64,000 bases of DNA from Caulobacterales bacterium RIFCSPHIGHO2_01_FULL_70_19 (GTDB lineage: Bacteria > Pseudomonadota > Alphaproteobacteria > Caulobacterales > Caulobacteraceae): contig MGLK01000026.1 in NCBI GenBank assembly GCA_001794825.1, positions 19,619-83,618 on the forward strand, in the 5' to 3' direction. Positions 33,449-57,806 of this stretch are shown piece by piece. The translations under genes were made by a program, and so were the position numbers. The notes below the pieces were generated by a model that saw nothing but the letters and a program-made list of their open reading frames with translations, was not told the origin of the DNA and did not search any database. Numbering within the stretch: position 1 is the first letter of the stretch; every line of letters starts with the position of its first letter.

Positions 33449-34824
33449 GAGGCAACCGCCGGCGAGAACAGTTCGCGAAGCAGCATGTTCAGCTGATTGA
33501 TCTCGATCTTCCGCAGACCGTTGCTGTGCGCGACGATGCGCCCGGCCAGGTCCATCGTCGCCGCTGTCGAGGCCAGTCTCGCCTTGCTCGCCTCGTCGAT
33601 ATTGTAGAGGCCGCAGACGCCGCCGACGGCCTTGGCGCCGATGATGTTGTTCACCGCCTTGGGAAAGCGCCCGCGGAAGCTCTGCGACATCAGCATGTCG
33701 GGCGTCGGCGGCATGACGAACCGCCACCAGACCTCCCGGCCGTTGCAGGTTGCGGTCTTTCGCTCTTCGATGGGGGTGCTCTCCAGGTACAGGAGGAGCT
33801 CCCGGCTCGCCTCTACATCCGTCCGGATCAGCCAACACTTGTGGCCGGGGTCGCGATAGTGGGCGTTGAAGGTCTGCCGATCGAGGACGGCGACATCGTT
33901 CGGCAGGTGTCGGAGGGTGGTGACGCAAGGAACGACGTCGCGGTCCACCCGCAGTCCCCCGTGCACCCGCTCCCCCTCGGTCAGGGTCAGGATTTTCTGC
34001 GTGCCGGGACTGAGACCGCGCACAGCGCGAGCTTCGCCGGCCTTTACATCGGCGCGGCGCCGGTAGCCGATCACGCCGCCTTCTCCGCCGGTAGGCGAGG
34101 GCAGGGGGGTATAGGCGCCGTCGGCGGTCTCTTCGAAGTAACGCCAGCGCCCATCCGTCCCGGTCTTGTCGATCAGGGTGATGCTCGCCGTAGTCAGGAC
34201 CGCGTCAAAGGTGCTGTCGACCAGACGGTAGACATCCACGCGCCAACCCTTGCCCTTGATGTAGTCCCGAAGCGCCTTCGCCGAGGGGCGAGAAACCCAT
34301 TCGAACGGGACCACCAGCGCGCACAGACCGTCCGGCTTGGTGCTGGCCAACGCCAGGAAGAAGAAATATTGCCAGGCGTTCGCCAGCCCGGACAGGCGCA
34401 CGCCCGTGCGCTCCTCGATCACCTTGCTGGCCGATCGCCGCCATCCGTCGGGCAGGTGCTGGTTGCGCACGAACGGCGGGTTACCGATGCACACGTCGGC
34501 CTGCATGCGGTCGGCCGAAAAGGCGCACTGGTCCAGAAGGTCTGCATTGTCTGGTAAGTCAGCGTCCCGGATCCGGGTCTTGTCCACCTCGAAGCCGATG
34601 TATTGATCGTACCGGCCGCAGCGGGCGAAACGTCCATCGCCGGCTCCGAAGTCCACCACCATGCCGACGTGTTCGCGCAGCTGGTGCACATGGTCCCAGG
34701 TCGCCCTCACCAGCTTGGGAGGAGTGTCGACCTGGCAAATGTTGAGGTAGAGCGCGATCGTCCGCTCGCAGCCCCATTCGGGCGCGAGTCGAGACGCCAC
34801 GGTCGTTTCGGCAGCCCCCTGCAC
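33445..34824 (-). CDS. N6-adenine DNA methyltransferase (gamma-class, Eco57I/TaqI-like) with large C-terminal target-recognition region
   Basis: Motif I 'VVDFGAGDGRF' (~34632-34661) precedes motif IV 'IGNPPFV' (NPPF codons 34471-34482). About 250 aa of C-terminal region with no recognised domain. Start codon (GTG 34824) uncertain. Confidence 0.8.
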   Translation of the reverse strand: MQGAAETTVASRLAPEWGCERTIALYLNICQVDTPPKLVRATWDHVHQLREHVGMVVDFGAGDGRFARCGRYDQYIGFEVDKTRIRDADLPDNADLLDQCAFSADRMQADVCIGNPPFVRNQHLPDGWRRSASKVIEERTGVRLSGLANAWQYFFFLALASTKPDGLCALVVPFEWVSRPSAKALRDYIKGKGWRVDVYRLVDSTFDAVLTTASITLIDKTGTDGRWRYFEETADGAYTPLPSPTGGEGGVIGYRRRADVKAGEARAVRGLSPGTQKILTLTEGERVHGGLRVDRDVVPCVTTLRHLPNDVAVLDRQTFNAHYRDPGHKCWLIRTDVEASRELLLYLESTPIEERKTATCNGREVWWRFVMPPTPDMLMSQSFRGRFPKAVNNIIGAKAVGGVCGLYNIDEASKARLASTAATMDLAGRIVAHSNGLRKIEINQLNMLLRELFSPAVAS

Positions 34825-36420: not shown

Positions 36421-37002
36421 CTACTTGGCGCCAGCCGTCGCCCGGTTCCGGGCCAAAGCCCGGTAAAGGGTGCTGCGTGAGACGCCCAAAGACGAGGCGA
36501 TTGCCTCCATCGTCTGATCCGGGTGGCTCAGGAGGAGCCGCGCCTGTGCGATCTGTCGCTCGCTGAGCGCCCGCTTGCGGCCACCCCTTCTCCCGCGCGC
36601 CCGTGCAGCCGCCAGGCCGGCCATGGTCCGCTCCCGAATGAGATCCCGCTCCATCTCGGCAAGCGCTGCCATCATGTGGAAGAAGAATCGGCCGGCGGGC
36701 GTCGTCGTATCGATGCCGTCCGTGAGGCTGCGGAAGCCGACCCCTCGACCTCTCAGTTCAGCGACCAGCTCCACCAGCTGGCGGACGGTTCGGCCGAGGC
36801 GGTCCAGCTTCCATACGGTGAGCGTATCGCCCTCACGCAAGTAGCTCAGGGCTTCCCTCAAGCCAGGGCGCTCGACCTGCGCACCCGAGGTGGCATCGGC
36901 GAAGATCTGGCTGCAGCCGGCGGCCCTCAGAGCGTCGGTCTGCAGATCAACGTTCTGATCCGCTGTCGAAACGCGGGCGTAGCCAACCATCATGTCGCAC
37001 AA
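36421..37002 (-). CDS. Serine recombinase (resolvase/invertase family)
   Basis: 'VGYARVSTADQNVDLQ' with the catalytic Ser, 'VWKLDRLGR', C-terminal HTH 'IASSLGVSRSTLYRAL'. The real start is probably one of the internal Met codons (MMVGYARVS). Confidence 0.92.
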   Translation of the reverse strand: MCDMMVGYARVSTADQNVDLQTDALRAAGCSQIFADATSGAQVERPGLREALSYLREGDTLTVWKLDRLGRTVRQLVELVAELRGRGVGFRSLTDGIDTTTPAGRFFFHMMAALAEMERDLIRERTMAGLAAARARGRRGGRKRALSERQIAQARLLLSHPDQTMEAIASSLGVSRSTLYRALARNRATAGAK

Positions 37003-37317: not shown

Positions 37318-39399
37318 CTAGGAGGCCTTGGCGACCTCAACCAATCTGCCTCCTTCCAGCTTAAGCACTCGATCTGCAGCCTCAATCAACCTAGGCCGAT
37401 GGGCGACGACGATTCGCGTAATTTTTAATCCCTTTACGAAATCGCAGATCAGCGCCTCGTTCTCGCTGTCCAAGTTCGCGGTTCCTTCGTCCAGGACGAG
37501 GATGGCCGGATCGCGGTATATGGCACGAGCCAGGATCACACGCTGAAGCTGTCCACCCGATAGACTGGTGCCCATGTCGCCAACGCGAGTCCAGTAGCCC
37601 ATCGGCATTTCCTCAATCTCGTCGGCGATCTTGGCCGCCGCGGCAGCCCGCTTCACACGGTCTAAATCAAGCTCAAGAGGAAAACCCGCGATATTCTCGG
37701 CGACGGGACCGGCGAGCAGCTGATCATTCTGGGCCACATAGCCGATGTGCCTTCGGACGGCGGAGCGAGTGTCTGGAGCCAATTCGCGTCCGTCGATCCG
37801 GATACGTCCGCTGGACGGCTCCAGAAGACCAAGCAGCAATTTGACCAACGTCGTCTTGCCTGCGCCGGAGGCTCCAACGATCGCGACGAACTCGCCTTGC
37901 GATATGACGAGGTCTAGGTCACGAAGCACCAACGGAAGTCCAGCGCCGTAGGCATAGGTCACGCCCTGCAGTTCGATCGCACCACGTACGCATATGTTTG
38001 CGCCTGCTACCGTCTCCGGCGGTTCCGACAGAATGTCCTTCAGACGCTCGAGATGGACGTCCAGCAGCCGGAACTGGACCAGTTGCAAGTTGAGGGCGTT
38101 TGCGCGCTCCGCGAATATCTGCCGATACGCCAAAAAGGCGACCAGCATCCCGATTGAGAGGCCGGATCCCGACAGTACCGACCTCGCGCCCAGGTACAGG
38201 ATGATCACCCCCTGCAGCCCCTGCAGGCCGACCTGCACCGCCGCGTTGATCGACTGCCATTTGGAGGCAAGCAGACCTGCGTTGAGCGCTCGGATGAGGA
38301 GGTTCTGCCACTGAGAATCTCGTGTGGTCTCCAGTCCGAGGACCTTGATGAGCGTGGCTCCCCTCACTGATTCTATGAGGTGGTTCTGCTCCTGAGCAGA
38401 CTCTACGACCTGTTCGGCGATTTGCCTGCGCACACGGGGGTAGATGAGCATCGTGACGCCAGCGGAGACGGCGGCGAACAGGGCCGCAATCAGAGCCAGC
38501 GGGGGCGAGTACAGCGTCATTATTGCCAACGCGCCGAGCGCCGTCAGCAGATCCAGCCCTGCGGTCAGCACGCCCTTGGTCAGAACCTCCTGCACGCTTC
38601 GAACGGAGTTCACCCGTGACAGGACATCCCCGACGGCTCTGACCTGAAAATAAGCCATCGGCAGGCGAATGAGCCGATGAACGACGTTACTGAGCAGTCG
38701 GAAGTTAAGGCCGGCTCCGACGATGTTGAGCGTCCAAGCTCGGAGGCCGTCGAGAAGGGCGTGGGTGACAACGATCACCCCGAAGGCCACGGCCAGCGGC
38801 AGCAGGATGTCTGCGTCCTCACCACTGATCGCGCGATCGAGGGTCAGCTGGGTTTGAAGCGGGAGCGCAAAGAGGACCACCTGGAGCGCCAGCGACACTA
38901 TCAGGGCTTGGCCGGCGACTGCATTCAGTCCGGACAGACCGCGAAACAGATCCCGAAGGCGCAGGGGCGTACGGGCATCGATGGGCCGGAACTCGGGGGC
39001 GCGATCGAGTTCCAGCGCCACCCCTGTGAAGGCGTCCGACAGCACTTTCCGCGGAACTTTCCGAGCTCCAACGGCGGGGTCAATGATTGTCGCCTCCCTG
39101 CCGTCGAAGCCGGAGAGGACAACGAAGTGGTCAAAGCGCCAGTGAAGGACCGCGGGGAGTTGAAGAAGCTCAAGCTCTTCTATTTCCACGCGGATGGGTC
39201 TCGTTCGCAGGCCGAGCGCTTCGCCCACGTCCATCAAGGTAGCGAGCGTGGCTCCGGCTGCCGAACTGGGGAACCGCTTCTTCAGATCCGTCAGGTCGAT
39301 CTTGTGGCCCCAGTAGCCCGCAACCATGGCGAGGCAAGCCAATCCGCAATCGGCCTGCTCCGCCGCGAGGATCATCGGAACATTGCGGCGTCTGGGCAT
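37318..39399 (-). CDS. Peptidase-C39-domain ABC transporter (PCAT, bacteriocin/RiPP exporter)
   Basis: C39 catalytic 'QADCGLACLAMVAGYWG' and 'FDHFVVL'. Six-TM region. Walker A 'GASGAGKTT', signature 'LSGGQLQR', Walker B 'ILVLDEGT'. ATG 39399 lies 2 nt from the HlyD stop. Confidence 0.9.
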   Translation of the reverse strand: MPRRRNVPMILAAEQADCGLACLAMVAGYWGHKIDLTDLKKRFPSSAAGATLATLMDVGEALGLRTRPIRVEIEELELLQLPAVLHWRFDHFVVLSGFDGREATIIDPAVGARKVPRKVLSDAFTGVALELDRAPEFRPIDARTPLRLRDLFRGLSGLNAVAGQALIVSLALQVVLFALPLQTQLTLDRAISGEDADILLPLAVAFGVIVVTHALLDGLRAWTLNIVGAGLNFRLLSNVVHRLIRLPMAYFQVRAVGDVLSRVNSVRSVQEVLTKGVLTAGLDLLTALGALAIMTLYSPPLALIAALFAAVSAGVTMLIYPRVRRQIAEQVVESAQEQNHLIESVRGATLIKVLGLETTRDSQWQNLLIRALNAGLLASKWQSINAAVQVGLQGLQGVIILYLGARSVLSGSGLSIGMLVAFLAYRQIFAERANALNLQLVQFRLLDVHLERLKDILSEPPETVAGANICVRGAIELQGVTYAYGAGLPLVLRDLDLVISQGEFVAIVGASGAGKTTLVKLLLGLLEPSSGRIRIDGRELAPDTRSAVRRHIGYVAQNDQLLAGPVAENIAGFPLELDLDRVKRAAAAAKIADEIEEMPMGYWTRVGDMGTSLSGGQLQRVILARAIYRDPAILVLDEGTANLDSENEALICDFVKGLKITRIVVAHRPRLIEAADRVLKLEGGRLVEVAKAS

Positions 39400-39400
39400 A

Positions 39401-40651
39401 CTAATTGAACATCCGCCTGACCGTCCTCGACAGCCAGTCCCAGAAGGACCTTCGATCCACCGTGATCCGGGCCTCCACCGGGGTTCCGGGCCGCACATCT
39501 GCGAACTCCGGCCGACGCCGTAGACTGCCTGCATCGATTTCTACGTTGACCCGGAAATAGGAGCCCTGCGGCAACGTAGAGGAAATGAGGTCCGCAGAGG
39601 GCAGGGCGGTCGCCGAAATCCCCAAGACCTTGCCCCGCACCCGGCCGAACCGTCGCTGAGGCAGGGTGTCGAACCCAACCGTTGCCGGTTGTCCGGCGGC
39701 GATCAACCCGACGTCGGAGGCGGGCATGAGGAGCTCGGCGACGGCTTTGCCGGGCCCCGCAATGAAACCTATGGCCCCGCCGGAATTCAAATGCTGGGAT
39801 CCGACGTTGGGGACCAGCGTGAGGACGCCCGCCCTCGGAGCCGACACGAGATACCGTCCATCAGCTTGGAGCTGAGCGAGCTGTCCACCCAACCGGGCGC
39901 GCGTTTCCGTCGCCGTGGCCGAGGCCGCCTGCCTTTCGACCTCCGATCGCGCCCCTGATTCTTCCTGCTCGGCGATCTGACGCCGCAGCCCTTCCGCGGC
40001 GGCCGACAATGCTAGGTGTTCGGACTTCAAACTAAGCAACTGATCCTGCCGACGGAGCAGCTCGGACCGTGTGAGATATCCCCGCGCGGCGATCTCCTCG
40101 GCGTTTCGGGCCTGTTCTTCGGCAAGGGTGATGCGTCCGTTCATCAAGCCGATCTGGCTCTCCACCTGACTGAGTTCCTGCCTGAGACTCACGGCATTGC
40201 GCTTGGCGATCCGGGATGAGAGGCTAAGTTGATCGGCCCGGAGGTCAGCGGCCAAGGCCGCCGCCTCAAGCTCTTCGCGCGCCGCGTTTTCGCGCACATT
40301 CCAAGGATTGTTGGACCCAGAGTTGTCGGCCAATGCGATGGAGGCGATCGGCTGGCCGGCGAAAACGTGCGAGCCGTCTTCGACGTGTAGCTCACGAACA
40401 AGCCCGCCACGATCGGCAACGACCCGGACGATGCCGCCTTGGGGGGTGAGTATTCCCCGGCCCGAGACAGTGGAAGGAAAGCGGATGAAGGAGCAGGTCA
40501 GGGCTGCCGTAAAGACAAGGCCGGTCAGAACGAGGCTAAGCCGGGCTGTTAGAGGGGGGAGGGCGAGAAAAACGGCGCCTTCCCCACGACGGCTGATGCC
40601 GAGCAGGGCTTCCGAACGAAAGAGGCTGTTGTCGTCCTGCGGGTCTGCCAT
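39401..40651 (-). CDS. HlyD-family membrane fusion protein (CvaA/LcnD-like secretion accessory protein)
   Basis: 'LFRSEAL' N-terminus, single TM, barrel-sandwich 'VVADRGGLVRELHVEDGSHVFAGQPIA', long coiled coil. Confidence 0.88.
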   Translation of the reverse strand: MADPQDDNSLFRSEALLGISRRGEGAVFLALPPLTARLSLVLTGLVFTAALTCSFIRFPSTVSGRGILTPQGGIVRVVADRGGLVRELHVEDGSHVFAGQPIASIALADNSGSNNPWNVRENAAREELEAAALAADLRADQLSLSSRIAKRNAVSLRQELSQVESQIGLMNGRITLAEEQARNAEEIAARGYLTRSELLRRQDQLLSLKSEHLALSAAAEGLRRQIAEQEESGARSEVERQAASATATETRARLGGQLAQLQADGRYLVSAPRAGVLTLVPNVGSQHLNSGGAIGFIAGPGKAVAELLMPASDVGLIAAGQPATVGFDTLPQRRFGRVRGKVLGISATALPSADLISSTLPQGSYFRVNVEIDAGSLRRRPEFADVRPGTPVEARITVDRRSFWDWLSRTVRRMFN

Positions 40652-40660
40652 GCGCTACGG

Positions 40661-41791
40661 TTAAGCCGCAGACGCGCGTTCGTCCAAAACGTTCATAGCG
40701 GCAGACGGTATAGGGCCGAGCGCTTTCATGAACGCCGATTTGGGCAAAGAATCGAAACGGCTCCGAAGGGCTTTGGCCGACAGTTCTGCGGAACAGGTGC
40801 GGGGATCGAAGGTGAATTGGTCGTCCTTGGACGCCAGGTAGCGCGCGAAGGGCTCCAGAACCATGGTGTCCTCGCTGTGGAGCTCCTGCCAGATGAACTG
40901 CCCGGCTTCGTTCACCTCGAAAAAGACCCATTCGCCCTCCCGGCTCATCGCGAGGTCGAACGTCCCGAACCGGATGTCCAGCAGAGACATGATCTGCTTC
41001 AACTTCGTAAGAAGCCAGTCTTCGACGCTAAACGCTTGGAGGGTATTCAGGTAGGAGAGGTTCTGTCGCCAATCGCTGGCTAGGTCGGGGTCCTCCGGCA
41101 CCAGGATCTTGGACGCTGCGACATAGTTTCCGAAGATCGTAATGCGGACCTCGAAGGCCTTTGAAATATACTCTTGGTAGATTGTCGGCGACAGTTCGAC
41201 CGCGTCCTGCGGAAGTTCCTCGGGCGCCCGAATGACAGTCGTAAAGGCTGATATAATGCCCTCTTCCGTCTTCCAGTTGGCGTTGAAGTGGGTTTTCGTG
41301 CAGATTGCCTTTCTCGCCGCCAGAAAAGCTAGAACCTCCTCGTGATCATTACCGATCAAAGTGTCGGGGACACGCAGGCCGACCGCTTTTGCCGCTCGTA
41401 GTTGTGCGAACTTGTCGCCGCCACGAAGAATGCCCCGCGCCGGATTGACGGCGAATCCATCTTCCGAAAGCAAGGAGACGCTACGCGCGAAAGCGAATGC
41501 GCTTCCCTCGAGGAATGGCAGATCGGCCGGATGATATGAGCGCGGCTCAAAAGGGTGGGTGAGCCGCCGACGGTTCCACTGCGTGTCGATAGAGTCCAGC
41601 GGCAAGCGCTCATGCTGCGACCGGACTTGGAGCCACTCGCTCTCCGCGTCCGTGGCAAGGGAGAACCCCCCGTCTCTGAGGATAGGATCGACTACGATGA
41701 GGTGGCTCTCATGCCCCGTCGCGGTCAGCACGGCGTCGACATAGACCGCATGAGAATCCCGAGGTTCCGTAACCGTCAAGATGGTAGTCAT
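40661..41791 (-). CDS. ATP-grasp ligase of the RimK/MdnC-MvdD type (graspetide macrocyclase candidate)
   Basis: 'IYQEYISKAFEVRITIFGNYVAAS' and Mg/ATP motif 'FGTFDLAMSREGEWVFFEVNEAGQFIW' (compare E-I-N-P-x-G-Q-W of microviridin ligases). ATG 41791 overlaps the upstream TGA. Confidence 0.8.
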   Translation of the reverse strand: MTTILTVTEPRDSHAVYVDAVLTATGHESHLIVVDPILRDGGFSLATDAESEWLQVRSQHERLPLDSIDTQWNRRRLTHPFEPRSYHPADLPFLEGSAFAFARSVSLLSEDGFAVNPARGILRGGDKFAQLRAAKAVGLRVPDTLIGNDHEEVLAFLAARKAICTKTHFNANWKTEEGIISAFTTVIRAPEELPQDAVELSPTIYQEYISKAFEVRITIFGNYVAASKILVPEDPDLASDWRQNLSYLNTLQAFSVEDWLLTKLKQIMSLLDIRFGTFDLAMSREGEWVFFEVNEAGQFIWQELHSEDTMVLEPFARYLASKDDQFTFDPRTCSAELSAKALRSRFDSLPKSAFMKALGPIPSAAMNVLDERASAA

Positions 41792-42489
41792 GGGCGCGTT
41801 CCTGAGGCGGATTGATCTCGAGCGCAAAGCTGGTCCAGGAGAGGAATGCTCTCTGTGAGCGAGATGTCCATGCCGATCGCCTTCCGTCGCCCGTCCGCCG
41901 CCGAAATCGAGTCGACGGTCCCTCGATCAAAACGCCCATCGGCGCACACGCGATTGGTGCCATATGGTTGCGGCGTCCCCCGTGCCAACGCGATCCGATC
42001 CGCCGTCCGCGCGTAGTGATCCGGGTCAAGAGATCGCCGCGTCACGGCATCTCGCATGCCGCTAAGAACTCCTGCACGTAGAGCCGTCCCGTCAAGGTCA
42101 TCCCGATCAGGCACGTGTTGAAGAAGCAGCCACAAAGCCCGCTCGCCATCGGATCCAAGTCTCGGCCAACCGCCAGTCGCAACTATCGCCGCGACCCGAC
42201 GTGAGTTGGCGTCAATGATCTCCCGGCGGATCGTGCGCGTGCAGTCATCGGTGTTGGAGGGAGGTGGTTGTCTGCCCCAGCAGTCCGGCGGCACAGCCGT
42301 CAGCGAAAGCGCTGCTTGATCTGCGGCAGCCCGAAGCACGAGCTCCGAAGCCAGACAGGAGGTGTCAGAAATTTCACAAGCAAGATTGGTCGCGGCTTCC
42401 AGAGACGGCGGCCCGTCTCCGAAGGGGGTTACCGCCGGAGCCTGTTGGAGAAGCAAAGCCAGCAATAGGAAGTGGGCGAAGCTGTGCAT
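41788..42489 (-). CDS. Secreted hypothetical protein (first gene of the RiPP operon; immunity or accessory candidate)
   Basis: 233 aa from ATG 42489 with signal-like 'MHSFAHFLLLALLLQQAPA'. The rest of track ORF 41788..42783 is read-through. Confidence 0.55.
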   Translation of the reverse strand: MHSFAHFLLLALLLQQAPAVTPFGDGPPSLEAATNLACEISDTSCLASELVLRAAADQAALSLTAVPPDCWGRQPPPSNTDDCTRTIRREIIDANSRRVAAIVATGGWPRLGSDGERALWLLLQHVPDRDDLDGTALRAGVLSGMRDAVTRRSLDPDHYARTADRIALARGTPQPYGTNRVCADGRFDRGTVDSISAADGRRKAIGMDISLTESIPLLDQLCARDQSASGTRP

Positions 42490-42613
42490 ATCTGAACATT
42501 CGCATCGGGCAGGTTGTGACGCAATGCGCAGCCAAACACAGGGTTGTGAAGTGACGGATACAACCTTCGCGGAAATGATGGATCGCTGTTTCAGCAAGCA
42601 ATAGGAGGTTGAA

Positions 42614-42799
42614 GTGACTACAAGGCCCCTTGCTCGAGTACACGCTGTCGGCCGAACCCTTTCGCGAGAGGATGCGGCCAAGATCGGCGGCGGTGGAGAT
42701 GGCGGTGGCGATACGCTGTGCGTTTCACCCACCGAGATCACCCACGGTGATCCGCCCGAAACCATCCCCGACGAGAAGATCATCCGAGACGCTCAGTAG
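42614..42799 (+). CDS. Candidate RiPP precursor peptide with double-glycine leader (graspetide-type core)
   Basis: AGGAGG 5 nt upstream of GTG 42614. 61 aa 'MTTRPLARVHAVGRTLSREDAAKIGGGGDGGGDTLCVSPTEITHGDPPETIPDEKIIRDAQ'. 'LSREDAAKIGGG' fits the L-S-x-x-E/D-x-x-x-I-x-G-G leader. A strong terminator follows immediately. Divergent from the ATP-grasp/PCAT operon. Confidence 0.7.
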   Translation: MTTRPLARVHAVGRTLSREDAAKIGGGGDGGGDTLCVSPTEITHGDPPETIPDEKIIRDAQ

Positions 42800-42801
42800 C
42801 G

Positions 42802-42837
42802 GAAAGGCCCGGCGAAGCCGGGCCTTTCTATTTGTAT
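42802..42837 (+). terminator. Rho-independent terminator after the precursor peptide gene
   Basis: GAAAGGCCCGGC-gaag-GCCGGGCCTTTC perfect hairpin followed by the T-rich 'TATTTGTAT'. Confidence 0.85.
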
Positions 42838-43085
42838 GGTGTCACAGGCCTACTGGTACCTGACCGCTCCAGCGTTGGGACCCGCTCGGATTGAAGCGCC
42901 GAGGGTCTCTACAGCACCATGACTTGGGAGTGCGCTTCCAGCATTGCGTCCGCCAACCGCACGGCCGCTCCCGCGAGCGCTATGCCCGAGGCCGAACGGA
43001 CCGACACCATTCTGACTGGCGACGAACCCTTGGGCGCGACCAGCGTGCAGAGAGACGCTGGACTCCCAACCTATCGCCGGGACTA

Positions 43086-43948
43086 GGGCCAATCCACATT
43101 CAGGGATTCACGCGAGCTATGATGCGTGATTCATAGGTCTCCGCATTGGCGGAGGTCGGGATGGGTGTGAAGCGTTACGAGCTGACGGACGGACAGTGGG
43201 AGCGGATCGCTCCGCTGTTGCCGGGCAAGCCGACGGACCCCGGCCGGACAGGGTCGGACAACCGGCAGTTCGTGAACGGGGTGCTCTGGGTGCTGAGGTC
43301 AGGCGCCCACTGGCGCGATCTGCCGGAGCGCTACGGCAAGTGGAAGACGGCGCATACCCGCTTCAGCCGCTGGGCGCGAAAGGGCGTCTGGGAGCAGGTC
43401 TTCGACGAGCTGACCCGCGACCGGGACAACGCCTATCTGATGCTGGATTCGACGCTGGTGCGGGCGCATCAGCAGGCGACGGCGGGTCGGGGTTCCGGCC
43501 GAAAAAGGGGGGCCTCGACCCGGCTGTGGGGCGTTCCCGAGGTGGACTGACCACCAAGATCCACATGGCCTGCGACGGTCAGGGCCGACCCGTCCGCTTC
43601 CTGCTCGCGCCGGGCCAGGCCAGCGACGTCCAGGCCGCACCGGCCCTGCTGGAGGGCTTCCGCCCCGCCGCCGTCCTGGCCGACCGCGCCTATGACTCCA
43701 TGGCCCTGCGAGACCGGATCGACGCCATCGGCGCCGAGGCCGTCATCCCCTCGACCCGCTCGCGCAAGACCCCCATCCCGCACGACCGCGATCTCTACCG
43801 GCTGCGCAACCGCATCGAGCGCTGCTTCGCAAAGCTCAAGCACTTCCGCCGCTTCGCCACCCGCTACGACAGGCTCGCCGTCCACTTCCTCGGCTTCATC
43901 CACCTGGCCGCCGCCATGATCTGGATGCGGTGAATGTCGATTCGTCCT
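43086..43948 (+). mobile_element. IS5-family insertion sequence (IS427-group-like), about 0.86 kb
   Basis: Imperfect terminal inverted repeats: left CTAGGGCCAATCCACATTCA (43083-) against the reverse complement of the right end, CTAGGACGAATCGACATTCA (-43950). TA/CTAG-type flanks. Two-frame DDE transposase inside. Confidence 0.85.
43146..43933 (+). CDS. IS5-family DDE transposase expressed by programmed -1 frameshift (orfA 43146..43550, orfB frame to 43933)
   Basis: orfA 'YELTDGQWERIAPLLPG...NGVLWVLRSGAHWRDLP'. orfB 'LADRAYDS...RNRIERCFAKLKHFRRFATRYD'. The frames switch by -1 at the A5G6 run GAAAAAGGGGGG (43501-43512). Confidence 0.88.
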
Positions 43949-44495: not shown

Positions 44496-46112
44496 ATGAG
44501 CGCTGTCGAACCGATCGCCGGCGGCGACCTGGAGAGCATGTCGGAGGAGCGGTTTGCGCAACTGGCTGCTCGGGCTCGCGGAATCGCCGACCTCGCGACG
44601 CGCGAGCATAGAACCGTCTGGGACGTGGAGTCGGCGGCGGATCGCGCCGGTGTCAGCCGGGCGACCGTCTACCGGGACCTGCAACGGGCTCGAGGGGAGG
44701 GGAGGACGACCATCCGCGACCTGGCGGGTCGCACGGGCGGCTTCCCCAAAGGCCGGAGCCGTCTTCACCCCCATGTCGAGGCTGTCGTCGCGGAGGCGCT
44801 GAGGGGCCATTACCTCTCGCCCAACAAGCCGCCCTTGACGGAAACGGTGAAGGTCATTGACGGCGCCTGTGAACGGCTTGGGCTGCCTGGTCCGAGATAC
44901 GCAACGGTTCGACGTCGCCTTCTGAAAATGAACCGCGCAGCGGTGCTCGGCCGTCGCGACGGGAAGAAAGCCCGTGAGGCTGCGACGGCCAGGCCCGGCA
45001 GCTATGAGATCAAGCACCCTTGGGATTGCTGGCAGATCGATCACACCAAGGCCGACGTCATCATCGTCGACAAGGAGAGTCGCAAGCCGGTCGGGCGCCC
45101 TTGGCTGACCGTCATCATCGACGTCGCCACCCGTATGGTCGTAGGCTTCTACGTATCTCTTGAGCCGCCCTCGATCTTGCGAGCTGGCGCCGCCCTCGAC
45201 CAGGCGGTTCGGCCCAAGGGGCCCTGGCTGAAGCAGTTGGGGCTCGACTATCGCTGGCCGGTCGAGGGTCTTCCCAAGCTCATCCATTCCGATCGTGCCG
45301 GCGAATTCCAGTCTCGCGCCTTCGAACGGGCGTTGGCCAATCAGGGAGTCGAAACCTTCCTCCGTCCTGCCGGGAAAGCCCATTGGGGCGGCCACATCGA
45401 GCGGATGATCGGCACGATGATGGGCAGGTGCAAGATGCTGCCCGGCGCCACTCAGGGGAATCCCAAAGCGCGCGGCGACTACGACGCCAGCAAGGGCGCT
45501 GCCCTGGATATCGACCAGCTTGAACTATGGTTTGCTCACCAAATCCTCGGGGAGTACCACAACACCGTCCATAGCTCGCTCGGCTGCACACCTCTTGAGG
45601 CCTGGGAGCGCAAGGCAGCCGGGCTCCATCCGCGCCGACCGGACGACCCGGAAAGCTTTCGGATCGATCTGTTTCCAGAAATCACGCGCACCCTGACACG
45701 CACAGGCTTGAAGGCGTTCGGGGAGGAGTATGCGTCAGAAGACACCACGCTCGCTTACGCTGAAGGTCGCACCAAGGCCCGGCTGAAGTTCGATCCCCGG
45801 AACCTGGGCTGTCTCTACCTTCAAACGGCCGGTCGATGGGTTCGCGTGCTATATCGCCTGCCGAACCATTCCGGGCGCTACCCGACGCTGTGGTTCTACA
45901 ACTACGCCCGTCGGCTCGCCAAAGTGCTTGGCGCACCCCTCGAGGGCATCATGGCGCGCGCCGCCCGCGAAAAGGCCGAGGAGCTGCTCCACGGCGAGGC
46001 TCATAGCTCCCGCATCGCCCGCCTCGCCGTTGAGCGCCTCCGACAGGCCCGCGTCGCCACGGAAGCGCCGCCGGCCCAGGATCACGATGACAGCTGGGGA
46101 GGCGCGCTTTGA
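44496..46112 (+). CDS. tniA: TniA-type DDE transposase (Mu/Tn7 TnsB-like integrase core)
   Basis: HTH 'AGVSRATVYRDLQRA'. DDE core 'WQIDHTKADVIIVD', 'LTVIIDVATRMVVG', 'IHSDRAGEFQS...GHIERMIGT'. Confidence 0.9.
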   Translation: MSAVEPIAGGDLESMSEERFAQLAARARGIADLATREHRTVWDVESAADRAGVSRATVYRDLQRARGEGRTTIRDLAGRTGGFPKGRSRLHPHVEAVVAEALRGHYLSPNKPPLTETVKVIDGACERLGLPGPRYATVRRRLLKMNRAAVLGRRDGKKAREAATARPGSYEIKHPWDCWQIDHTKADVIIVDKESRKPVGRPWLTVIIDVATRMVVGFYVSLEPPSILRAGAALDQAVRPKGPWLKQLGLDYRWPVEGLPKLIHSDRAGEFQSRAFERALANQGVETFLRPAGKAHWGGHIERMIGTMMGRCKMLPGATQGNPKARGDYDASKGAALDIDQLELWFAHQILGEYHNTVHSSLGCTPLEAWERKAAGLHPRRPDDPESFRIDLFPEITRTLTRTGLKAFGEEYASEDTTLAYAEGRTKARLKFDPRNLGCLYLQTAGRWVRVLYRLPNHSGRYPTLWFYNYARRLAKVLGAPLEGIMARAAREKAEELLHGEAHSSRIARLAVERLRQARVATEAPPAQDHDDSWGGAL

Positions 46113-46999
46113 CCGACGACATCGGCGACCCCTTCGCTCACCTGGATGACCGAGTGAAGGCCCACGCCCTGGCGACCGATGCGTCGCGCCTGGCGCTCAT
46201 CTCCAGCGATTGGTGGATCTCCTATCCGCCGGGCGAGGAGGTGATCACCCGTCTCTTCGAACTGATCGATCTGCCGCTCCGCCAAAGGCCGCCGTCGATT
46301 GTCGTTCATGCTCCGCCCAACTACGGCAAGACGGCGATCATCACCCGGTTCATGGCCCTCTATGCCGGGCGGGTCTCCCGCGATGAGGCGGATCGGGATG
46401 GGGTCGTAGTGATCCAGGCGCCGCCGACTGTGGACGAGAAGCGTCTGTACCTTGAGATCCTCAACGCGATCGGAGCCAGCGCCCCGAATACGACCACGGC
46501 CAAGCTTCGCTCCATGGTCGTCAATCAACTACGCCAGCGTCGTACGCGCTTGTTGATCATCGACGAGTTGCAGCATGCCCTGGGCCAGCGCGCCAGCGCA
46601 CAGCAGGTGGTTCTCAACACCCTGAAGTACCTGTCCAACGAACTGAGCCTGTCCATCGCGGGGTTCGGATCCCGAGAGTCGAAGGCGCTTGTCTATTCCG
46701 ACGAGCACCTCGCCCAACGCTTCGAAGTCGTAGCCCTGCCGGCCTGGGACAAGAAGCACAGCTGGGTGGTCGACGTCGTTCGTCAGCGCATCACCCTGTT
46801 TCCGTTGCGACGGCCGACTGTGATCGACCGGTCCTTCATGAACCTGCTGCTGCAGCTCTGTGGGCCGACGGGCGGGCGCATGCTGGCCATGCTGGAACGC
46901 TGCGCCCGATCGGCGATCCGTGACGGCAGCGAGCAGCTTTCCGTCGAGCTGCTGGAAGCCGTGGCGCTCAAGGGCGAGCGGCTCGAACATGGGGTTTGA
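46109..46999 (+). CDS. tniB: TniB-type AAA+ ATPase (transposition helper)
   Basis: Walker A 'HAPPNYGKTAI', Walker B 'LLIIDELQHAL'. 4-nt overlap with tniA. Confidence 0.9.
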   Translation: MTDDIGDPFAHLDDRVKAHALATDASRLALISSDWWISYPPGEEVITRLFELIDLPLRQRPPSIVVHAPPNYGKTAIITRFMALYAGRVSRDEADRDGVVVIQAPPTVDEKRLYLEILNAIGASAPNTTTAKLRSMVVNQLRQRRTRLLIIDELQHALGQRASAQQVVLNTLKYLSNELSLSIAGFGSRESKALVYSDEHLAQRFEVVALPAWDKKHSWVVDVVRQRITLFPLRRPTVIDRSFMNLLLQLCGPTGGRMLAMLERCARSAIRDGSEQLSVELLEAVALKGERLEHGV

Positions 47000-48020
47000 T
47001 CGGCCTCACGGCGCGACGCTCTCGTTCCCGGCCGTCAGACGGGAGGAAGGGGAGGCGCTCTCCTCCTGGCTCGCACGCATCGCCCGAGCGCATCTTCTCG
47101 ATATGGACCACGTCGCGGACGAGGTCGGTTGTCGCGTGCAGTTGGTCGACCACGCGCCTGCTGAAGAGATCCTTGCGCAGATCGCCCGCCGCACCGGCGT
47201 GGACCTCTACCAGGTTAGAGCGGCGGTGCATCCGCTGCTCACTGGATCTGATCGACCCTTGCGAGCGGAGTTGGACTGGCGCGTATGTCCCGCGTGCCTG
47301 GCGCAAGACGCCGGGGCGGGGAGGGCGCTCTTCGTGAGAACGGCGTGGACCCATCCCCTCGCGACGGTCTGCCTCGAGCACCGTTCGCCCCTCCTGACGC
47401 CAACCGCAGCGCAGGCCTCAGCGATGCTTCCGTCCGACGTCAGCTTGCCCCGCCAAGATCATGGGCTGTCCAGCATCGAGCGGGAGCCCCTCGACAGCCT
47501 TCTGCTCGCGGCCGAACGCGTCCGCCCAACCAAATCGATCACGCCAGACGTGGGCACCTTGGTCCGCGAAGTGCGGGATCTCGTCGACGCGCTGTCGGTC
47601 CAGATCAACCTCGCCTTAGGAACAGGAGCGGCGCTGACCCTCTTCGAAGAGCCTCGCCGTGGGCGTCACATCGCCCCGCTCGCGCTGACCCTGCCAGAGG
47701 ACATCTTGGCGGCGCTGGACCCGGCCGATCGGCTTCTGTTCGCGCGAGCCGCCATCGCTCTGCGCTGGCCTTCGCCCGGCTATCGTCAGGAGCGGGAGGT
47801 GCTGGGAGACTGGTTCTCCCGCGTTGTGGACGTCGTCGTGCCGAAGGGTCGGCGGCGGGTGATCGGCGATGTCGGCATGGACCCGCTGGGGCTGCTGGCT
47901 ATGGCGCTCCCTGTCCAGCCGTTCCATCAGCTACGGGCGAGAGCGGGGGGCTGGTCGGAAGAGTTTCGGGGACGTTGGGCGGCCGCCGAGCAACTGGCCG
48001 CCTTGGCTGGCCTCAACTGA
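46989..48020 (+). CDS. tniQ: TniQ-family transposition (target-selection) protein
   Basis: From ATG 46989: 'FPAVRREEGEALSSWLARIARAHLLD', the TniQ N-terminal signature, plus a Cys pair 'VCPACL'. Overlaps the tniB end by 11 nt. Confidence 0.8.
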   Translation: MGFDRPHGATLSFPAVRREEGEALSSWLARIARAHLLDMDHVADEVGCRVQLVDHAPAEEILAQIARRTGVDLYQVRAAVHPLLTGSDRPLRAELDWRVCPACLAQDAGAGRALFVRTAWTHPLATVCLEHRSPLLTPTAAQASAMLPSDVSLPRQDHGLSSIEREPLDSLLLAAERVRPTKSITPDVGTLVREVRDLVDALSVQINLALGTGAALTLFEEPRRGRHIAPLALTLPEDILAALDPADRLLFARAAIALRWPSPGYRQEREVLGDWFSRVVDVVVPKGRRRVIGDVGMDPLGLLAMALPVQPFHQLRARAGGWSEEFRGRWAAAEQLAALAGLN

Positions 48021-49745: not shown

Positions 49746-50245
49746 TTGACGTCTCCCAGCATCCCGTAGCGACCCCGCCAGAACGTCAGTGCGGAGCCCT
49801 CCTCGACCGAGAAGCTCTCGACCCGGCCGACGACGATCATGTGATCTCCCATCCCGATCCTCTCATGGGTGGCGCAATCGAAGCGGGCCAGGACGTGAGG
49901 CAGACGCGGGGGACCGTCCGCTCGCCTACCGAACTCACCCTCGGACAGGATCGCCACGCCCCGGGCGAAGCGCGCCGCCCTCGCCCGGTCCGCGGCCGCA
50001 AGGACGTGGACGGCGAATCGGTCGGCGGCGGCGAAGGCCGACCAGCGCTCCGACCGTTCGTCCAGGCACCACAGGATCAGCCGCGGCTCGAGCGAGACAG
50101 AGGTGAAGGAGTTGATGGTCAGGCCCAGCGGCCCCTGGTCGCTGTCGGCCGTCACCACGCACACGCCTGTGGCGAAGGCGCCGAGCGCGCGGCGGTAGGC
50201 CGTGGTCTCGGCGGACGGATGCTCGGGCGGCGGTTCGAGGGTCAC
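49742..50245 (-). CDS. Flavin reductase (FMN-binding split-barrel family)
   Basis: 'FATGVCVVTA', 'LTINSFTSVSLEPRLILWCL'. 4-nt overlap with the downstream dehydrogenase. Confidence 0.88.
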   Translation of the reverse strand: MTLEPPPEHPSAETTAYRRALGAFATGVCVVTADSDQGPLGLTINSFTSVSLEPRLILWCLDERSERWSAFAAADRFAVHVLAAADRARAARFARGVAILSEGEFGRRADGPPRLPHVLARFDCATHERIGMGDHMIVVGRVESFSVEEGSALTFWRGRYGMLGDVK

Positions 50246-50353
50246 GCGTCCGACCTAGGCGGCCGCGCGGGCCGGGGCAAGCCGCGGATGGGAAACGTCG
50301 CCTTAACGCCTCGCCGTCCAGGATCGGGACAGTCCCGCTGGAGCCCCTCCCCC

Positions 50354-51256
50354 ATGTCCATGAGCGATCGTCCGATCCTCATCAAGAAGGTCAAGAAGGT
50401 CGTGGGGCACGGCCACCATGGCGGCGCATGGAAGGTCGCCTACGCCGACTTCGTGACCGCGATGATGGCCTTCTTCCTGCTGATGTGGCTGATCAACACG
50501 ACGGATCCGGAGCAGAAGCGCGGCATTGCGGAGTATTTCGCGCCGGCCAGCGTGTCGCAGACCACCTCGGGCTCGGGCGGCATTCTCGGCGGCACCTCGC
50601 TGGGCGACGACGGGGCCAAGGGGGCGGGTTCGATGTCAGTGATCACCCAGCTGGCCCCCGAGGCGCCGGAGGATGCGCCGGCGGAAGCGGGCCAGAATTC
50701 GAACCTCGCCGCGGCCACGGAAGAGGAGCTGCGCGAAGAGATCGCCCGGCGCGAGGCCGCGGACTTCGCTTCCGCGGCCGAATCGCTGCGTCAGGCGATG
50801 CAGTCGATGCCGGAGCTGGCCGAGCTGTCGAAGCAGCTGATCATCGACCAGACTCCGGAAGGGCTGCGCATCCAGCTGGTCGACCAGGAAGGCCGCTCGA
50901 TGTTCGAGACCAATTCGGCCCGGCCCAATCCACGGGCCCAGCTGCTGCTCCGGGCTATCTCGCGAGTGATCAACCAGCTGCCGAACCGCATCTCGATCAC
51001 CGGCCACACCTCGGCGGCGCCAGGGTCGAACCGGGCCAGCGGCCCCAACGACTGGACCCTGTCGTCAGCGCGCGCCAACGCTTCGCGGTTGATCCTGCAG
51101 GCGGCGGGCGTGGATCCCGACCGGGTCTACCAAGTGTCGGGCAAGGCGGGATCGGATCCGCTCTACCCCGACGACCCGACCCTCGCAGGAAACCGACGCA
51201 TCGCCATCGTGTTGCTGCGCGAGGCTCCGGTGCTGCCCACGGACACCAGCCTGTGA
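50354..51256 (+). CDS. motB: Flagellar motor stator protein MotB (OmpA-like C-terminus)
   Basis: 'HHGGAWKVAYADFVTAMMAFFLLMWL', C-terminal 'ISITGHTS...WTLSSARANASR...NRRIAIVL'. No motA adjacent. Confidence 0.9.
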   Translation: MSMSDRPILIKKVKKVVGHGHHGGAWKVAYADFVTAMMAFFLLMWLINTTDPEQKRGIAEYFAPASVSQTTSGSGGILGGTSLGDDGAKGAGSMSVITQLAPEAPEDAPAEAGQNSNLAAATEEELREEIARREAADFASAAESLRQAMQSMPELAELSKQLIIDQTPEGLRIQLVDQEGRSMFETNSARPNPRAQLLLRAISRVINQLPNRISITGHTSAAPGSNRASGPNDWTLSSARANASRLILQAAGVDPDRVYQVSGKAGSDPLYPDDPTLAGNRRIAIVLLREAPVLPTDTSL

Positions 51257-51368
51257 CCCGCCGCCCGGCCAGCGACGGTCGGGCTTGCGTCGGGAGGCGG
51301 AGCGGTCCCACATACGGTCATGTGCAAGGTGCCGGATTTCGGGCGGAATTGGATGGCGTGGTGAGGCC

Positions 51369-52103
51369 GTGACCCGCTTCGTTCCGCAACGCCAGCTACG
51401 CTTCTACATGACCTCGGTCGCCCCCTGCCCTTACCTGCCCGGGCAGACGGAACGGAAGGTGTTCGCCAACCTGCCCTTCTCGGACGGGGTCCACGTCAAC
51501 GATGAGCTGACCCAGGCCGGGTTCCGGCGCAGCCAGAACATCGCCTACCGGCCGGCGTGCGAGAGCTGCGACGCCTGCGTCTCCGTGCGCATCCCCACGG
51601 GCCAGTTCGCCTTCTCCCGATCGCAGCGGCGGGTGTTGGCGAGGAACTCGGATCTGAGCCGGGATCTGGTCGAGGCCGAGGCGACGACCGAGCAGTTCGA
51701 CCTGCTGCGGCGCTACCTGGCGGCACGGCATCCCGGCGGCGGGATGAGCGGCATGGGCTGGCTCGACTATGTGGCCATGGTCGAGGATACGGCGGTGCGG
51801 ACCCACCTGATCGAATACCGGCTGCCCTCCCCGGACGGCGGTCCCGGGGACCTGGTGGGGGTCTGCCTGACGGACCTGCTCTCGGACGGGCTGTCGATGG
51901 TCTACAGCTTCTTCGACCCGGACCAGGAGGCGCGGAGCCCGGGACGGTTCGCCATCCTCGACCACGTGCGACAGGCGCAGGCCGTGGGGCTCCCGTACGT
52001 CTACCTGGGCTACTGGGTCCGGGGATCGGAGAAGATGGACTACAAGGCCCGCTTCCGGCCGATGGAGCAACTGACCCGGCTGGGCTGGCGCGCCCTGCCC
52101 TAG
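51369..52103 (+). CDS. bpt: Arginyl/leucyl-tRNA--protein transferase (Bpt/Ate family)
   Basis: 'CPYLPGQTERKVF', 'GFRRSQNIAYRPACESCDAC', 'YVYLGYWV'. Start (GTG 51369) uncertain. Confidence 0.9.
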   Translation: MTRFVPQRQLRFYMTSVAPCPYLPGQTERKVFANLPFSDGVHVNDELTQAGFRRSQNIAYRPACESCDACVSVRIPTGQFAFSRSQRRVLARNSDLSRDLVEAEATTEQFDLLRRYLAARHPGGGMSGMGWLDYVAMVEDTAVRTHLIEYRLPSPDGGPGDLVGVCLTDLLSDGLSMVYSFFDPDQEARSPGRFAILDHVRQAQAVGLPYVYLGYWVRGSEKMDYKARFRPMEQLTRLGWRALP

Positions 52104-53125
52104 CTGGCCGCCGGCACGGAGGTGTCCTGCCCCGCCGGCTGCGGTCCGACCCACGGGCCCGGGTCCTGCCCCCCGCCGAATTTCACCAGCGCTTCGATGC
52201 GCTTTTCGATCGGCGGATGGGTGGCGAACAGGCCTTCCAGGCCGCGGCCGTCCGGCTGGTTGTCGAGGAACATCTGCTGCACCTCGTCCGGGCCCTTCAG
52301 CGAGGAGCGGCCCTCGATCTTGCGCAGGGCCGAGATCATTGCGTCGGGGTTCTTGGTCAGCTCCACGGCCCCGGCGTCGGCGACGAACTCGCGCGTGCGC
52401 GACAGCATCATCCGGATGACCACCGCCAGGGCCACGCCGACGGCGGCGAAAACCAGGCCGATGAGGATCAGCGGGCCGGCATTGGAGTTCTTCGATCGGC
52501 CGCGTCCGCCGCCGGTGTGGACCAGGGCGCGGAAGACCAGTTCGGCCAGCACGCTGATGATGCCGGCGAAGATGGAGGCGATGACCATGGTCCGCACGTC
52601 CTTGTTGATGACGTGGGTGAGCTCGTGGGCCAGAACGGCTTCGACCTCGTCGCGGGTCAGGGTGTTCACGAGCCCCCGGGTCACGGTGACGCTGTAGCGG
52701 CCCTCGTGCAGGCCGGTGGCGAAGGCGTTGAGGCTGTCGCTCTCGATCATGCGCAGTGTCGGCGTGCGCAGTCCGCGTGAGATCGCGAGGTTTTCCAGCA
52801 GGTTGTAGAGCTCGGGTTCAGTGCGTCTCTCAACCTTCCGGGCGCCGGTGATCGAGTCGATGATGGCCTGGTTGCCGACGTAGGCGATGGCGAACCAGAC
52901 CGCGGCGACGACCAGGGCCATGGGCACGGTCCAGCCCAGCCACGAGGCGGCCAGCGCCATGTCGTCGCCGAGCCCGCGCCCGGTGCCGGGCAGCAGGCCG
53001 AAGCCCATCATCACCAGCTGGGCGCCGTAGAGAATGAAGACCAGCAGCACCGGAAAGCCGGCCAGCAGCAGGATCGACCGGGTGTTGTTCGCCCAGATGT
53101 GGGTCTGGAGCCCGACGGCGCCCAT
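52100..53125 (-). CDS. htpX: M48-family zinc metalloprotease (HtpX-like)
   Basis: 'AVLAHELTHVINKD', multiple TM segments. Confidence 0.88.
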   Translation of the reverse strand: MGAVGLQTHIWANNTRSILLLAGFPVLLVFILYGAQLVMMGFGLLPGTGRGLGDDMALAASWLGWTVPMALVVAAVWFAIAYVGNQAIIDSITGARKVERRTEPELYNLLENLAISRGLRTPTLRMIESDSLNAFATGLHEGRYSVTVTRGLVNTLTRDEVEAVLAHELTHVINKDVRTMVIASIFAGIISVLAELVFRALVHTGGGRGRSKNSNAGPLILIGLVFAAVGVALAVVIRMMLSRTREFVADAGAVELTKNPDAMISALRKIEGRSSLKGPDEVQQMFLDNQPDGRGLEGLFATHPPIEKRIEALVKFGGGQDPGPWVGPQPAGQDTSVPAAS

Positions 53126-53132
53126 GGCTCAG

Positions 53133-53708: not shown

Positions 53709-53867
53709 GTCAGTCTCCCCTCGGGGCGATGGCCCACCTCTTCACTATCGCCGGTTATGGACGGCGGGCGAAGTGAAATCGGAGTCACCGAACGCGCCGG
53801 TCGCCACCCTCCGGTATCCCGAGGCCGCGCCGCGGCTCCCCGTAGGGCGAGGATGGCGGCCGCCGTG

Positions 53868-56069
<2,202 letters not shown>

Positions 56070-56145
56070 GCGAAACTGATTCGGGCTGGGAAGCCGTCAG
56101 TCTAGCGCAGGATGGGCGCCCGTGACGGAACGCGCCTGTGGGCGA

Positions 56146-57747: not shown

Positions 57748-57806
57748 CCGGGATTCCGGGTCCGTGACCGTACAAATCGAGTGTTAAGGCGGCTTGAAGC
57801 GGAACC

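Follow-up and report, generated by a model that had tools for sequence, protein, structure and literature searches.

A probable graspetide precursor encoded divergently from an ATP-grasp, DUF6624 and exporter operon in a Caulobacterales genome

The window analyzed here is a stretch of 64,000 nucleotides from Caulobacterales bacterium RIFCSPHIGHO2_01_FULL_70_19 (contig MGLK01000026.1, positions 19,619 to 83,618), and this report concerns a small open reading frame (ORF) within it, at 42614..42799 on the plus strand. It is very likely that this ORF encodes the precursor of a graspetide, a peptide with side chains cross-linked by an ATP-grasp ligase, in this case with two predicted ester rings and with a predicted cut after G27. 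An earlier, model-made reading of the DNA letters (the original prediction) had proposed a double-glycine leader at this place, followed by a core rich in residues suitable for cross-linking. The features of the precursor gene are as follows.

42614..42799, plus strand: precursor gene, with a GTG start at 42614, 61 codons and a TAG stop at 42797-42799
42603..42608, plus strand: Shine-Dalgarno sequence AGGAGG, read directly, 5 nt before the GTG
42614..42694, plus strand: leader, codons 1-27, MTTRPLARVHAVGRTLSREDAAKIGGG, with an R-P-h-A-R motif and a double-glycine leader
42695..42799, plus strand: core, codons 28-61, GDGGGDTLCVSPTEITHGDPPETIPDEKIIRDAQ, with the stop codon; based on alignments, composition and purifying selection
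42801..42829, plus strand: GC-rich hairpin GGAAAGGCCCGGC-GAA-GCCGGGCCTTTCT, with a 13-bp stem and a 3-nt loop, followed by ATTTGTAT
42490..42613, no strand assigned: divergent intergenic region of 124 bp separating the precursor gene from the DUF6624/ATP-grasp operon

The ORF reads GTG ACT ACA AGG CCC ... TAG, and when the frame was translated again the 61-residue product, MTTRPLARVHAVGRTLSREDAAKIGGGGDGGGDTLCVSPTEITHGDPPETIPDEKIIRDAQ, agreed exactly with the leader and core that had been proposed. The AGGAGG that had been placed 5 nt ahead of the GTG is present, and a GGAGG or GGAG-like sequence occurs 5-9 nt ahead of the start in five of six precursor homologues. The perfect hairpin announced downstream of the stop codon is also found, as a stem of 12-13 bp with a weak T-run. 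It has a folding energy of -27.9 kcal/mol (z = -3.98 with respect to shuffled sequences) and is the sole terminator-like site within 42300-43200; most precursor homologues are likewise succeeded by stable hairpins, with similar ones after the stop codon in the homologous loci L003, L006 and L088. The hairpin of the window probably serves as an intrinsic terminator for a monocistronic transcript of the precursor gene, and the intergenic region upstream is presumed to contain the promoter. A scan of 42300-43200 with Rfam returned only sub-threshold chance matches.

By itself, a 61-codon ORF is not significant. In this region, with a GC content of about 62%, an 18-kb stretch is overlapped by 156 ORFs of 40 residues or more, and an antisense ORF of 331 residues (41788..42783) overlaps the peptide frame. 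The original prediction had suggested a search for conserved small ORFs next to homologous ATP-grasp genes, and such ORFs exist: nine distinct homologues of 58-64 residues were found. Contigs were fetched for the closest relatives of the ATP-grasp protein (44-47% identical), and each fetched locus that covers the upstream region possesses an ORF of 60-64 residues at the equivalent position. In L001-L006 and L088-L090 the ATP-grasp gene is preceded by DUF6624, and the small ORF is divergent from this DUF6624 gene and lies about 120-150 bp upstream of it. When L134 and L136 are included with these loci, the small gene is located within about 150 bp, and in L136 within about 1.2 kb, of the ATP-grasp gene or its preceding DUF6624 gene, and the ATP-grasp proteins are 38-47% identical to that of the window. 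The precursor homologues, in which the start and stop positions are conserved, always adjoin a homologous MdnC-type ATP-grasp gene, and most of the loci also contain a C39 exporter, HlyD and DUF6624.

Comparison of the nucleotide sequences shed further light on this point. Between the precursor genes of L004 and L090 there are 31 synonymous differences (proportion pS of 0.75) and 9 non-synonymous ones (pN of 0.06), and for L004 and L006 the ratio of non-synonymous to synonymous rates (dN/dS) is 0.26. In close pairs the identities of peptide and ligase track together (88/77, 67/64 and 65/67%). Since conserved homologues stand beside ATP-grasp genes, the substitutions are mostly synonymous, and the ribosome-binding sites and hairpins recur, we take 42614..42799, on this comparative evidence, to be a real and conserved gene that is under purifying selection and functionally tied to the ATP-grasp gene.

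A search with a profile of the peptide recovered six clusters among 5.8 billion proteins, and a full scan with the corresponding hidden Markov model gave seven matches among 1.84 billion representatives. Two of the additional matches from the full scan are P0049, from the L136 locus, which also carries DUF6624, a peptidase-containing ABC transporter (PCAT) and HlyD, and P0050, from L134, which lies beside an ATP-grasp gene with a product 38% identical to that of the window. A scan of metagenome contigs with a close ATP-grasp alignment revealed no further close family member. By these counts the precursor/core family appears to be very rare. One member is a RefSeq "hypothetical protein" from Brevundimonas sp. 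(WP_313552953.1), which is listed together with the ATP-grasp protein WP_313552951.1 of the same species, and the 61-residue peptide of the window has itself been called as a gene on 8 metagenome contigs (P0036). The full scan also returned P0048, a protein of 319 residues; its first 50 residues constitute a family precursor, MSVRPIARSLAVSRTLTGEEVAKVSGADSAIEVGDSTICNDPESFTRPDP, and the remainder is unrelated, so that an insertion or a frameshift has apparently disrupted this precursor gene.

The leader of the family consists of two parts. The first has the pattern M-[TS]-x-R-P-[LIV]-A-R-x-x-A-x-x-R, and in an alignment of the six closest family members M1, R4, P5, A7, R8, A11, R14 and G26 are invariant. 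The second is a double-glycine segment with the consensus [LI](-12)-[ST](-11)-x-x-[ED](-8)-[IVA](-7)-x-x-[IV](-4)-[SG]-G-[GA], and at positions -12, -11, -8, -7, -4, -2 and -1 the window peptide has L, S, D, A, I, G and G, respectively. The alignment places the homologous processing site after G26-G27, in agreement with the cleavage site that had been proposed, and the assignment of L(-12), S(-11), D(-8) and I(-4) to a leader of the type recognized by C39 domains is borne out by the match to the family consensus. A "GA" replaces the "GG" in P0031, P0033, a variant from L088 and the distant P0050.

The resemblance of the N-terminal RPLARV to the PFFARFL helix of microviridin leaders had been offered as speculation, and it proved to be stronger than was then assumed. 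Besides the invariance of R4, P5, A7, R8, A11 and R14, the segment P5-L6-A7-R8-V9 matches the published pattern P-h-h-x(1,2)-h. Roughly half of all graspetide precursors contain this pattern, which has been equated functionally with the ligase-activating PFFARFL of the microviridins (Makarova et al. 2022, PMC8939145). The R-P-h-A-R motif of the window peptide may be presumed to serve as the recognition element for the ATP-grasp enzyme. The N-terminal motif persists in precursors located by ATP-grasp relatives down to about 30% identity, and the cores of these precursors differ. When the small ORFs of 96 sequences (95 loci and the window) were searched iteratively with a profile restricted to the leader, a two-part leader of the form R-[IV]-[LF]-A-[RY]-x-[LM]-A-x-E-[LI]-[ST]-x-x-E-[LI]-x-x-[VI]-S-G-G was obtained in 56 loci, counting the window. 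The majority of these matches lie directly upstream of ATP-grasp genes with products about 30% identical to that of the window, and their hosts include Legionella, Thermoanaerobaculia, Lysobacter and Burkholderiales.

Following the leader there is a variable linker rich in Gly, Asp and Met, and then the conserved core [ST]34-[IL]-C36-x(4,6)-[IF]-T43-[RH]-x(5,8)-P52-D53-[EQ]-x(4)-D59. Among six members a Ser or Thr is conserved at position 34, and T43, D53 and D59 are invariant; these are hydroxyl donors and carboxylate acceptors of the kind expected in a graspetide core. The original prediction had counted 5 Thr/Ser, 7 Asp/Glu, a single Lys and a single Cys in the core. The counts of Thr/Ser (4 Thr and 1 Ser), Lys and Cys are correct, but the acidic residues number 8 (5 Asp and 3 Glu). 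Its proposal that these residues include donors and acceptors for cross-links holds for S/T34, T43, D53 and D59, which are conserved in the family, but not for the Lys. Because the single Lys is not conserved, no lactam is expected and an omega-amide is unlikely.

The neighboring genes form a minus-strand operon of four, whose transcription leads away from the precursor gene.

41788..42489, minus strand: DUF6624 protein of 233 residues from the ATG at 42489 (PF20329, 27.4 bits with a cut-off of 27)
40661..41791, minus strand: ATP-grasp peptide maturase (graspetide synthetase) of 376 residues, counted from Met13 of the ORF (P0001), from NCBIfam and Protein Data Bank (PDB) matches
39401..40651, minus strand: HlyD-family periplasmic adaptor for type I secretion (Pfam HlyD_3; NCBIfam TIGR01843, E 1e-32)
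37318..39399, minus strand: PCAT (Pfam Peptidase_C39, 8e-32, ABC_membrane and ABC_tran; TIGR03796, E 2e-132)

The start of the ATP-grasp gene overlaps the DUF6624 stop by 4 nt. The ATP-grasp protein matches NCBIfam TIGR04187, TIGR04184 and TIGR04185 with E values of 1e-38 to 4e-30, and its matches among solved structures are MdnC (5IG9, E 6e-20), CdnC (7MGV) and MdnB (5IG8, E 2e-15). The precursor gene thus stands beside an ATP-grasp gene of the MdnB/MdnC clade, a pairing that recurs in all the homologous loci. Only 30 relatives of this ATP-grasp protein were found at E < 1e-5 among 5.8 billion protein clusters.

Both elements expected of a PCAT substrate pathway, a C39 exporter and a membrane-fusion protein (HlyD), are present. 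The matches to TIGR03796 and TIGR01843 are both under the equivalog/subfamily cut-offs. The PCAT probably comprises 693 residues with the start MPRRRNVPMIL; a gene call of 693 residues is seen in identical contigs. In the 738-residue ORF the C39 domain covers residues 46-190, which correspond to about 1-145 of the 693-residue form. The closest solved relative of its C39 domain is the double-glycine protease LahT150 (6MPZ, E 1e-20), with which the stretches CG(L)AxLAMV, (D/N)HFVVL and DPA align. In PCATs these stretches, represented here by QADCGLACLAMV, DHFVVL and IIDPA, carry the catalytic Cys, His and Asp, respectively.

The N-terminus of the DUF6624 protein, MHSFAHFLLLALLLQQAPAVT..., is hydrophobic and resembles a signal peptide, and six Cys residues are invariant among its homologues. 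Six DUF6624 homologues from the family loci are 221-233 residues long and start at the equivalent of Met99 of the 331-residue ORF, which corresponds to 42489 in the window. Because the hydrophobic N-terminus and the six invariant Cys look like those of a secreted protein, DUF6624 is predicted to act outside the cytoplasm and probably resides in the periplasm or is secreted. When homologues of the DUF6624 protein were sought, just its own long form from the window and one fragment were recovered, and PADLOC assigned no defense system to DUF6624 or to the neighborhood of a MotB-like gene described below.

The composition of the related clusters varies. L134 (3583..8644) contains two tandem precursor/ATP-grasp pairs and one PCAT/HlyD pair; one of the precursors is the Cys-less P0050, and the other is a peptide of 61 residues whose leader has the form RVFAR...TGG. 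This locus is devoid of DUF6624 and carries instead a protein of 415 residues with a weak, sub-threshold match of the ChaN/Tiki type (PF04187, E 0.0034, 17.8 bits with a cut-off of 27.7). An extra, variable gene without a Pfam match is located between the ATP-grasp and exporter genes in L001-L003 (229 residues), L006 (270 residues), L088 (191 residues) and L094 (312 residues). The window cluster does not possess this extra gene, and its ATP-grasp, HlyD and PCAT genes are co-directional, whereas they are convergent in the related clusters.

These data may be assembled into the following model. A monocistronic messenger RNA would be translated from the GTG at 42614, and the ATP-grasp enzyme would dock on the leader at R4-P5-h-A7-R8 (with A11 and R14), the counterpart of the microviridin PFFARFL. 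The enzyme would then use ATP to activate the carboxylates of D53 and D59 as acyl phosphates, and attack by the hydroxyls of S/T34 and T43 would create two omega-ester (macrolactone) rings. The connectivity may be either nested (34-59 and 43-53) or crossed (34-53 and 43-59), since the sequence does not discriminate between them. The C39 domain would recognize L(-12), S(-11), D(-8), I(-4), G(-2) and G(-1) and cut after G27, and the PCAT/HlyD pair, together with an outer-membrane channel of the host, would export the core of 34 residues. The secreted, Cys-rich DUF6624 protein might provide extracytoplasmic self-protection or take part in late maturation, and this is the weakest element of the model. 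As to the mature product, one may guess at a protease inhibitor or an antagonistic peptide. Most members have a T43-R44 pair, which resembles, as a lead only, the Thr-P1 arrangement of the trypsin-inhibiting microviridins.

Several points weigh against the identification of the small gene as a graspetide precursor. Modification, cleavage and export of the peptide are predictions from sequence comparison, and no model from Pfam, NCBIfam or the literature matches the peptide. The ATP-grasp protein scores far under the NCBIfam maturase cut-offs (133 compared with 350 bits, and 105-110 compared with 425-475) and is, by these scores, a distant member of the maturase family. The ring connectivity is guessed on the basis of four conserved residues, and the most distant member, P0050, which has no Cys, may position its first donor differently. 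A scan for sigma-70 promoters gave no consensus for the intergenic region 42490..42613, and the T-tract after the precursor hairpin is weak. For DUF6624, a structure model from the single sequence was poor (predicted local distance difference test, pLDDT, 46.9; predicted template modeling score, pTM, 0.28), a search of PDB sequences with its profile produced no solved homologue even at E = 10, and a role in immunity or maturation is conjectural.

The single Cys of the core, which the original prediction had called unusual, suggests a different outcome of the same pathway. Located two positions past the first conserved Ser/Thr, Cys36 occurs in 8 of 9 family members and might take part in a cross-link or modification new to graspetides: an omega-thioester formed by the ligase, a DUF6624-dependent modification, or an obligatory disulfide dimer. 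Such participation of Cys36 is unlikely. That the decisive modification of the peptide is of this type, which would make the product a graspetide of a new chemotype, is quite unlikely. In favor of this idea are the near-invariance of the residue, a cluster that lacks a radical-SAM or other known Cys-modifying enzyme, and the residence of the lone Cys-less member, P0050, in a locus without DUF6624. However, P0050 shows that the family includes a member without the Cys, a DUF6624 protein that looks secreted would not meet a cytoplasmic precursor, and a search of the literature gave no paper in which graspetides are connected to thioesters or thiolactones. Strict coupling of DUF6624 with the core Cys was also considered and, across the loci compared, rejected: each occurs without the other in the wider superfamily, in which DUF6624 is found with Cys-free cores and Cys-containing cores are found without DUF6624. 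DUF6624 is among the commonest uncharacterized partners in graspetide clusters, and an omega-thioester or a DUF6624-dependent Cys modification, if true, would provide the first function for this family.

A second alternative dispenses with the ligase. The peptide might be an unmodified bacteriocin or microcin-like peptide with a double-glycine leader, or a signaling peptide, simply cleaved and exported by the PCAT/HlyD pair, with the ATP-grasp enzyme acting on some other substrate. A double-glycine leader and a PCAT/HlyD pair suffice for export of the class II microcin type, and the precursor gene is divergent from the ATP-grasp operon and transcribed apart from it. Four observations make this explanation very unlikely. 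First, the leader is about 10 residues longer than recognition by C39 requires, and this extra N-terminal part, with R4, P5, A7 and R8, is the most conserved of the peptide. Second, the small gene stays with the ATP-grasp gene where there is no PCAT nearby (L004 and L090). Third, the ATP-grasp protein falls in a clade of maturases for peptides that are made by ribosomes and modified after translation (RiPPs). Fourth, the conserved core positions are exactly Ser/Thr and Asp, as would be expected of a graspetide.

Finally, the notion that the small ORF is a chance frame and that the true gene is the antisense ORF at 41788..42783, although gene callers report its 331-residue product on identical metagenome contigs (P0037) and chance ORFs are plentiful in GC-rich DNA, is hardly credible, since the six DUF6624 homologues start at the Met99 equivalent with a segment resembling a signal peptide, the 98-residue extension has no counterpart elsewhere, and the small ORF has a pN far below pS and its own ribosome-binding site and terminator. 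As a true gene, the 331-residue form is ruled out by comparison; the extension is an artifact specific to the window, and the true DUF6624 start is the ATG at 42489. Callers often report this over-extended antisense ORF over the precursor, which serves as a warning for RiPP mining in GC-rich genomes.

It was of interest to compare the probable graspetide cluster of the window with known systems, beginning with the graspetide groups in which DUF6624 occurs. DUF6624 is frequent in groups 18, 20, 23 and 42; groups 18, 20 and 23 co-occur with peptidase transporters of the NHLM type, and for groups 20 and 23 HlyD is listed as well (Carter et al. 2026, PMC13097080). SmaA, a group 18 precursor, has a double-glycine motif that is cut by LahT150, and the modifications introduced by its oxygenases have been characterized but the cyclized product has not (Kim et al. 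2025, PMC12186529). The proteins designated "cluster 23", which have conserved His and Arg residues and are secreted or resemble lipoproteins (Makarova et al. 2022, PMC8939145), probably belong to the same protein family as DUF6624. The window resembles these groups in the co-occurrence of a double-glycine precursor, an MdnC-like ATP-grasp enzyme, a TIGR03796 C39-ABC exporter, a TIGR01843 HlyD and DUF6624. It also shares the leader form R-h-h-A-R...A...[LI][ST]xxE[LI]xx[VI]SGG, as found by ATP-grasp genes with about 30% identity in Legionella, Acidobacteriota, Lysobacter and others.

The differences from these groups are as follows. The window leader departs from the common form by a Pro and an insertion of two residues, the precursor is transcribed divergently, and, in contrast to the SmaA system, there are no oxygenases of the SmaO/SmaX type. 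Moreover, the ATP-grasp protein is only 27-35% identical to its relatives in species-representative genomes, and because of this the ligase likely constitutes a small cluster of its own, which probably would not join groups 18, 20, 23 or 42 at the alignment score of 70 used as the threshold in the published similarity network. The core motif [ST][IL]C...[IF]T[RH]...PD[EQ]....D and strings from the peptides were not found in the searched parts of the supplements to PMC13097080 and PMC8939145. Within the portions of these sources that were covered, the gene set is already catalogued and the precursor/core family is the new part.

The microviridin system (MdnA/MdnB/MdnC, group 1) resembles that of the window in its ATP-grasp enzymes, as MdnC and MdnB are homologous to the window ligase, in a conserved Pro-hydrophobic motif near the N-terminus of the leader, and in Thr/Ser donors and Asp acceptors in the core. 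In contrast to microviridin precursors, the window peptide contains neither PFFARFL nor the core TxKxPSDx(E/D)(E/D), its family has no conserved Lys, one ligase is present rather than two, and the system includes a double-glycine leader and an exporter with a C39 domain. The scores against the MvdC/MvdD equivalogs are 109.8 compared with 475 bits for TIGR04184 and 105 compared with 425 for TIGR04185. With the defining motifs absent and the equivalog scores failing, identity as a microviridin was rejected.

Comparison with the export of class II microcins and bacteriocins by PCATs (LahT, ComA and PCAT1) reveals a leader that fits LSxxELxxIxGG, a C39 domain closest to LahT150 and ComA with its key stretches aligned, and an HlyD adaptor as in Gram-negative type I secretion. 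The window differs from these systems in the extra conserved N-terminal element of its leader and in encoding a peptide-modifying ATP-grasp enzyme.

Taken with these comparisons, the compact cluster of five genes represents an unstudied graspetide scaffold, with RefSeq homologues that carry only the label "hypothetical protein". In the literature examined, no structurally solved cyclized product was found for the graspetide groups associated with DUF6624. The small and tractable cluster of the window therefore offers an entry point to the function of DUF6624 and to the ring types made by this clade of enzymes.

The cluster is flanked by genes of mobile elements.

36421..37002, minus strand: serine resolvase gene, flanking the cluster
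43146..43933, plus strand: IS4/IS5-family element with two overlapping transposase frames, DUF4096 and then DDE_Tnp_1
44496..48020, plus strand: tniA (rve), tniB and tniQ of the Tn5053/Tn402 type, flanking the cluster

Contigs of many metagenome samples encode an identical ATP-grasp protein (36 index blocks, with 22 contigs covered), some with the IS5 insertion and others without it. In L088 a 47%-identical version of the cluster has tni and Eco57I-methylase genes of the same kinds as neighbors. Because identical clusters are found beside Tn5053-type genes in many metagenomes, recent horizontal spread of a secreted-peptide trait is suggested. A search of 28000-50000 for inverted repeats revealed no convincing transposon ends, and comparison of 37000-43200 with plasmids by megablast gave no match. 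The IS4/IS5-family element is located between the precursor gene and tniA and is missing from the otherwise identical contigs L096 and L099; its overlapping frames suggest a programmed frameshift.

Some other genes of the region may be mentioned. Just past the precursor terminator is an ORF of 55 residues (42919..43086, plus strand) without a family match, for which several identical metagenome contigs carry a gene call. At 49841..57810 on the plus strand, three large ORFs (407, 1023 and 534 residues; ORF calls only) come after a gene for a MotB_plug/OmpA-domain protein (49841..51256); for these three, neither Pfam nor PADLOC gave a match. On the other side of the cluster, 31202..34824 (minus strand) encodes a DNA methyltransferase of the Eco57I type (459 residues) and then a protein of 908 residues with two domains of the HATPase_c type. 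This pair, which has weak PADLOC matches to type II restriction-modification systems and stands after the cluster in L088 as well, may represent a module for restriction or defense that travels with the peptide cluster. Upstream of the mobile region, 25297..28803 (minus strand) encodes a hybrid sensor kinase of 1168 residues with CHASE3, GAF, HisKA and HATPase domains and three matches to receiver domains.

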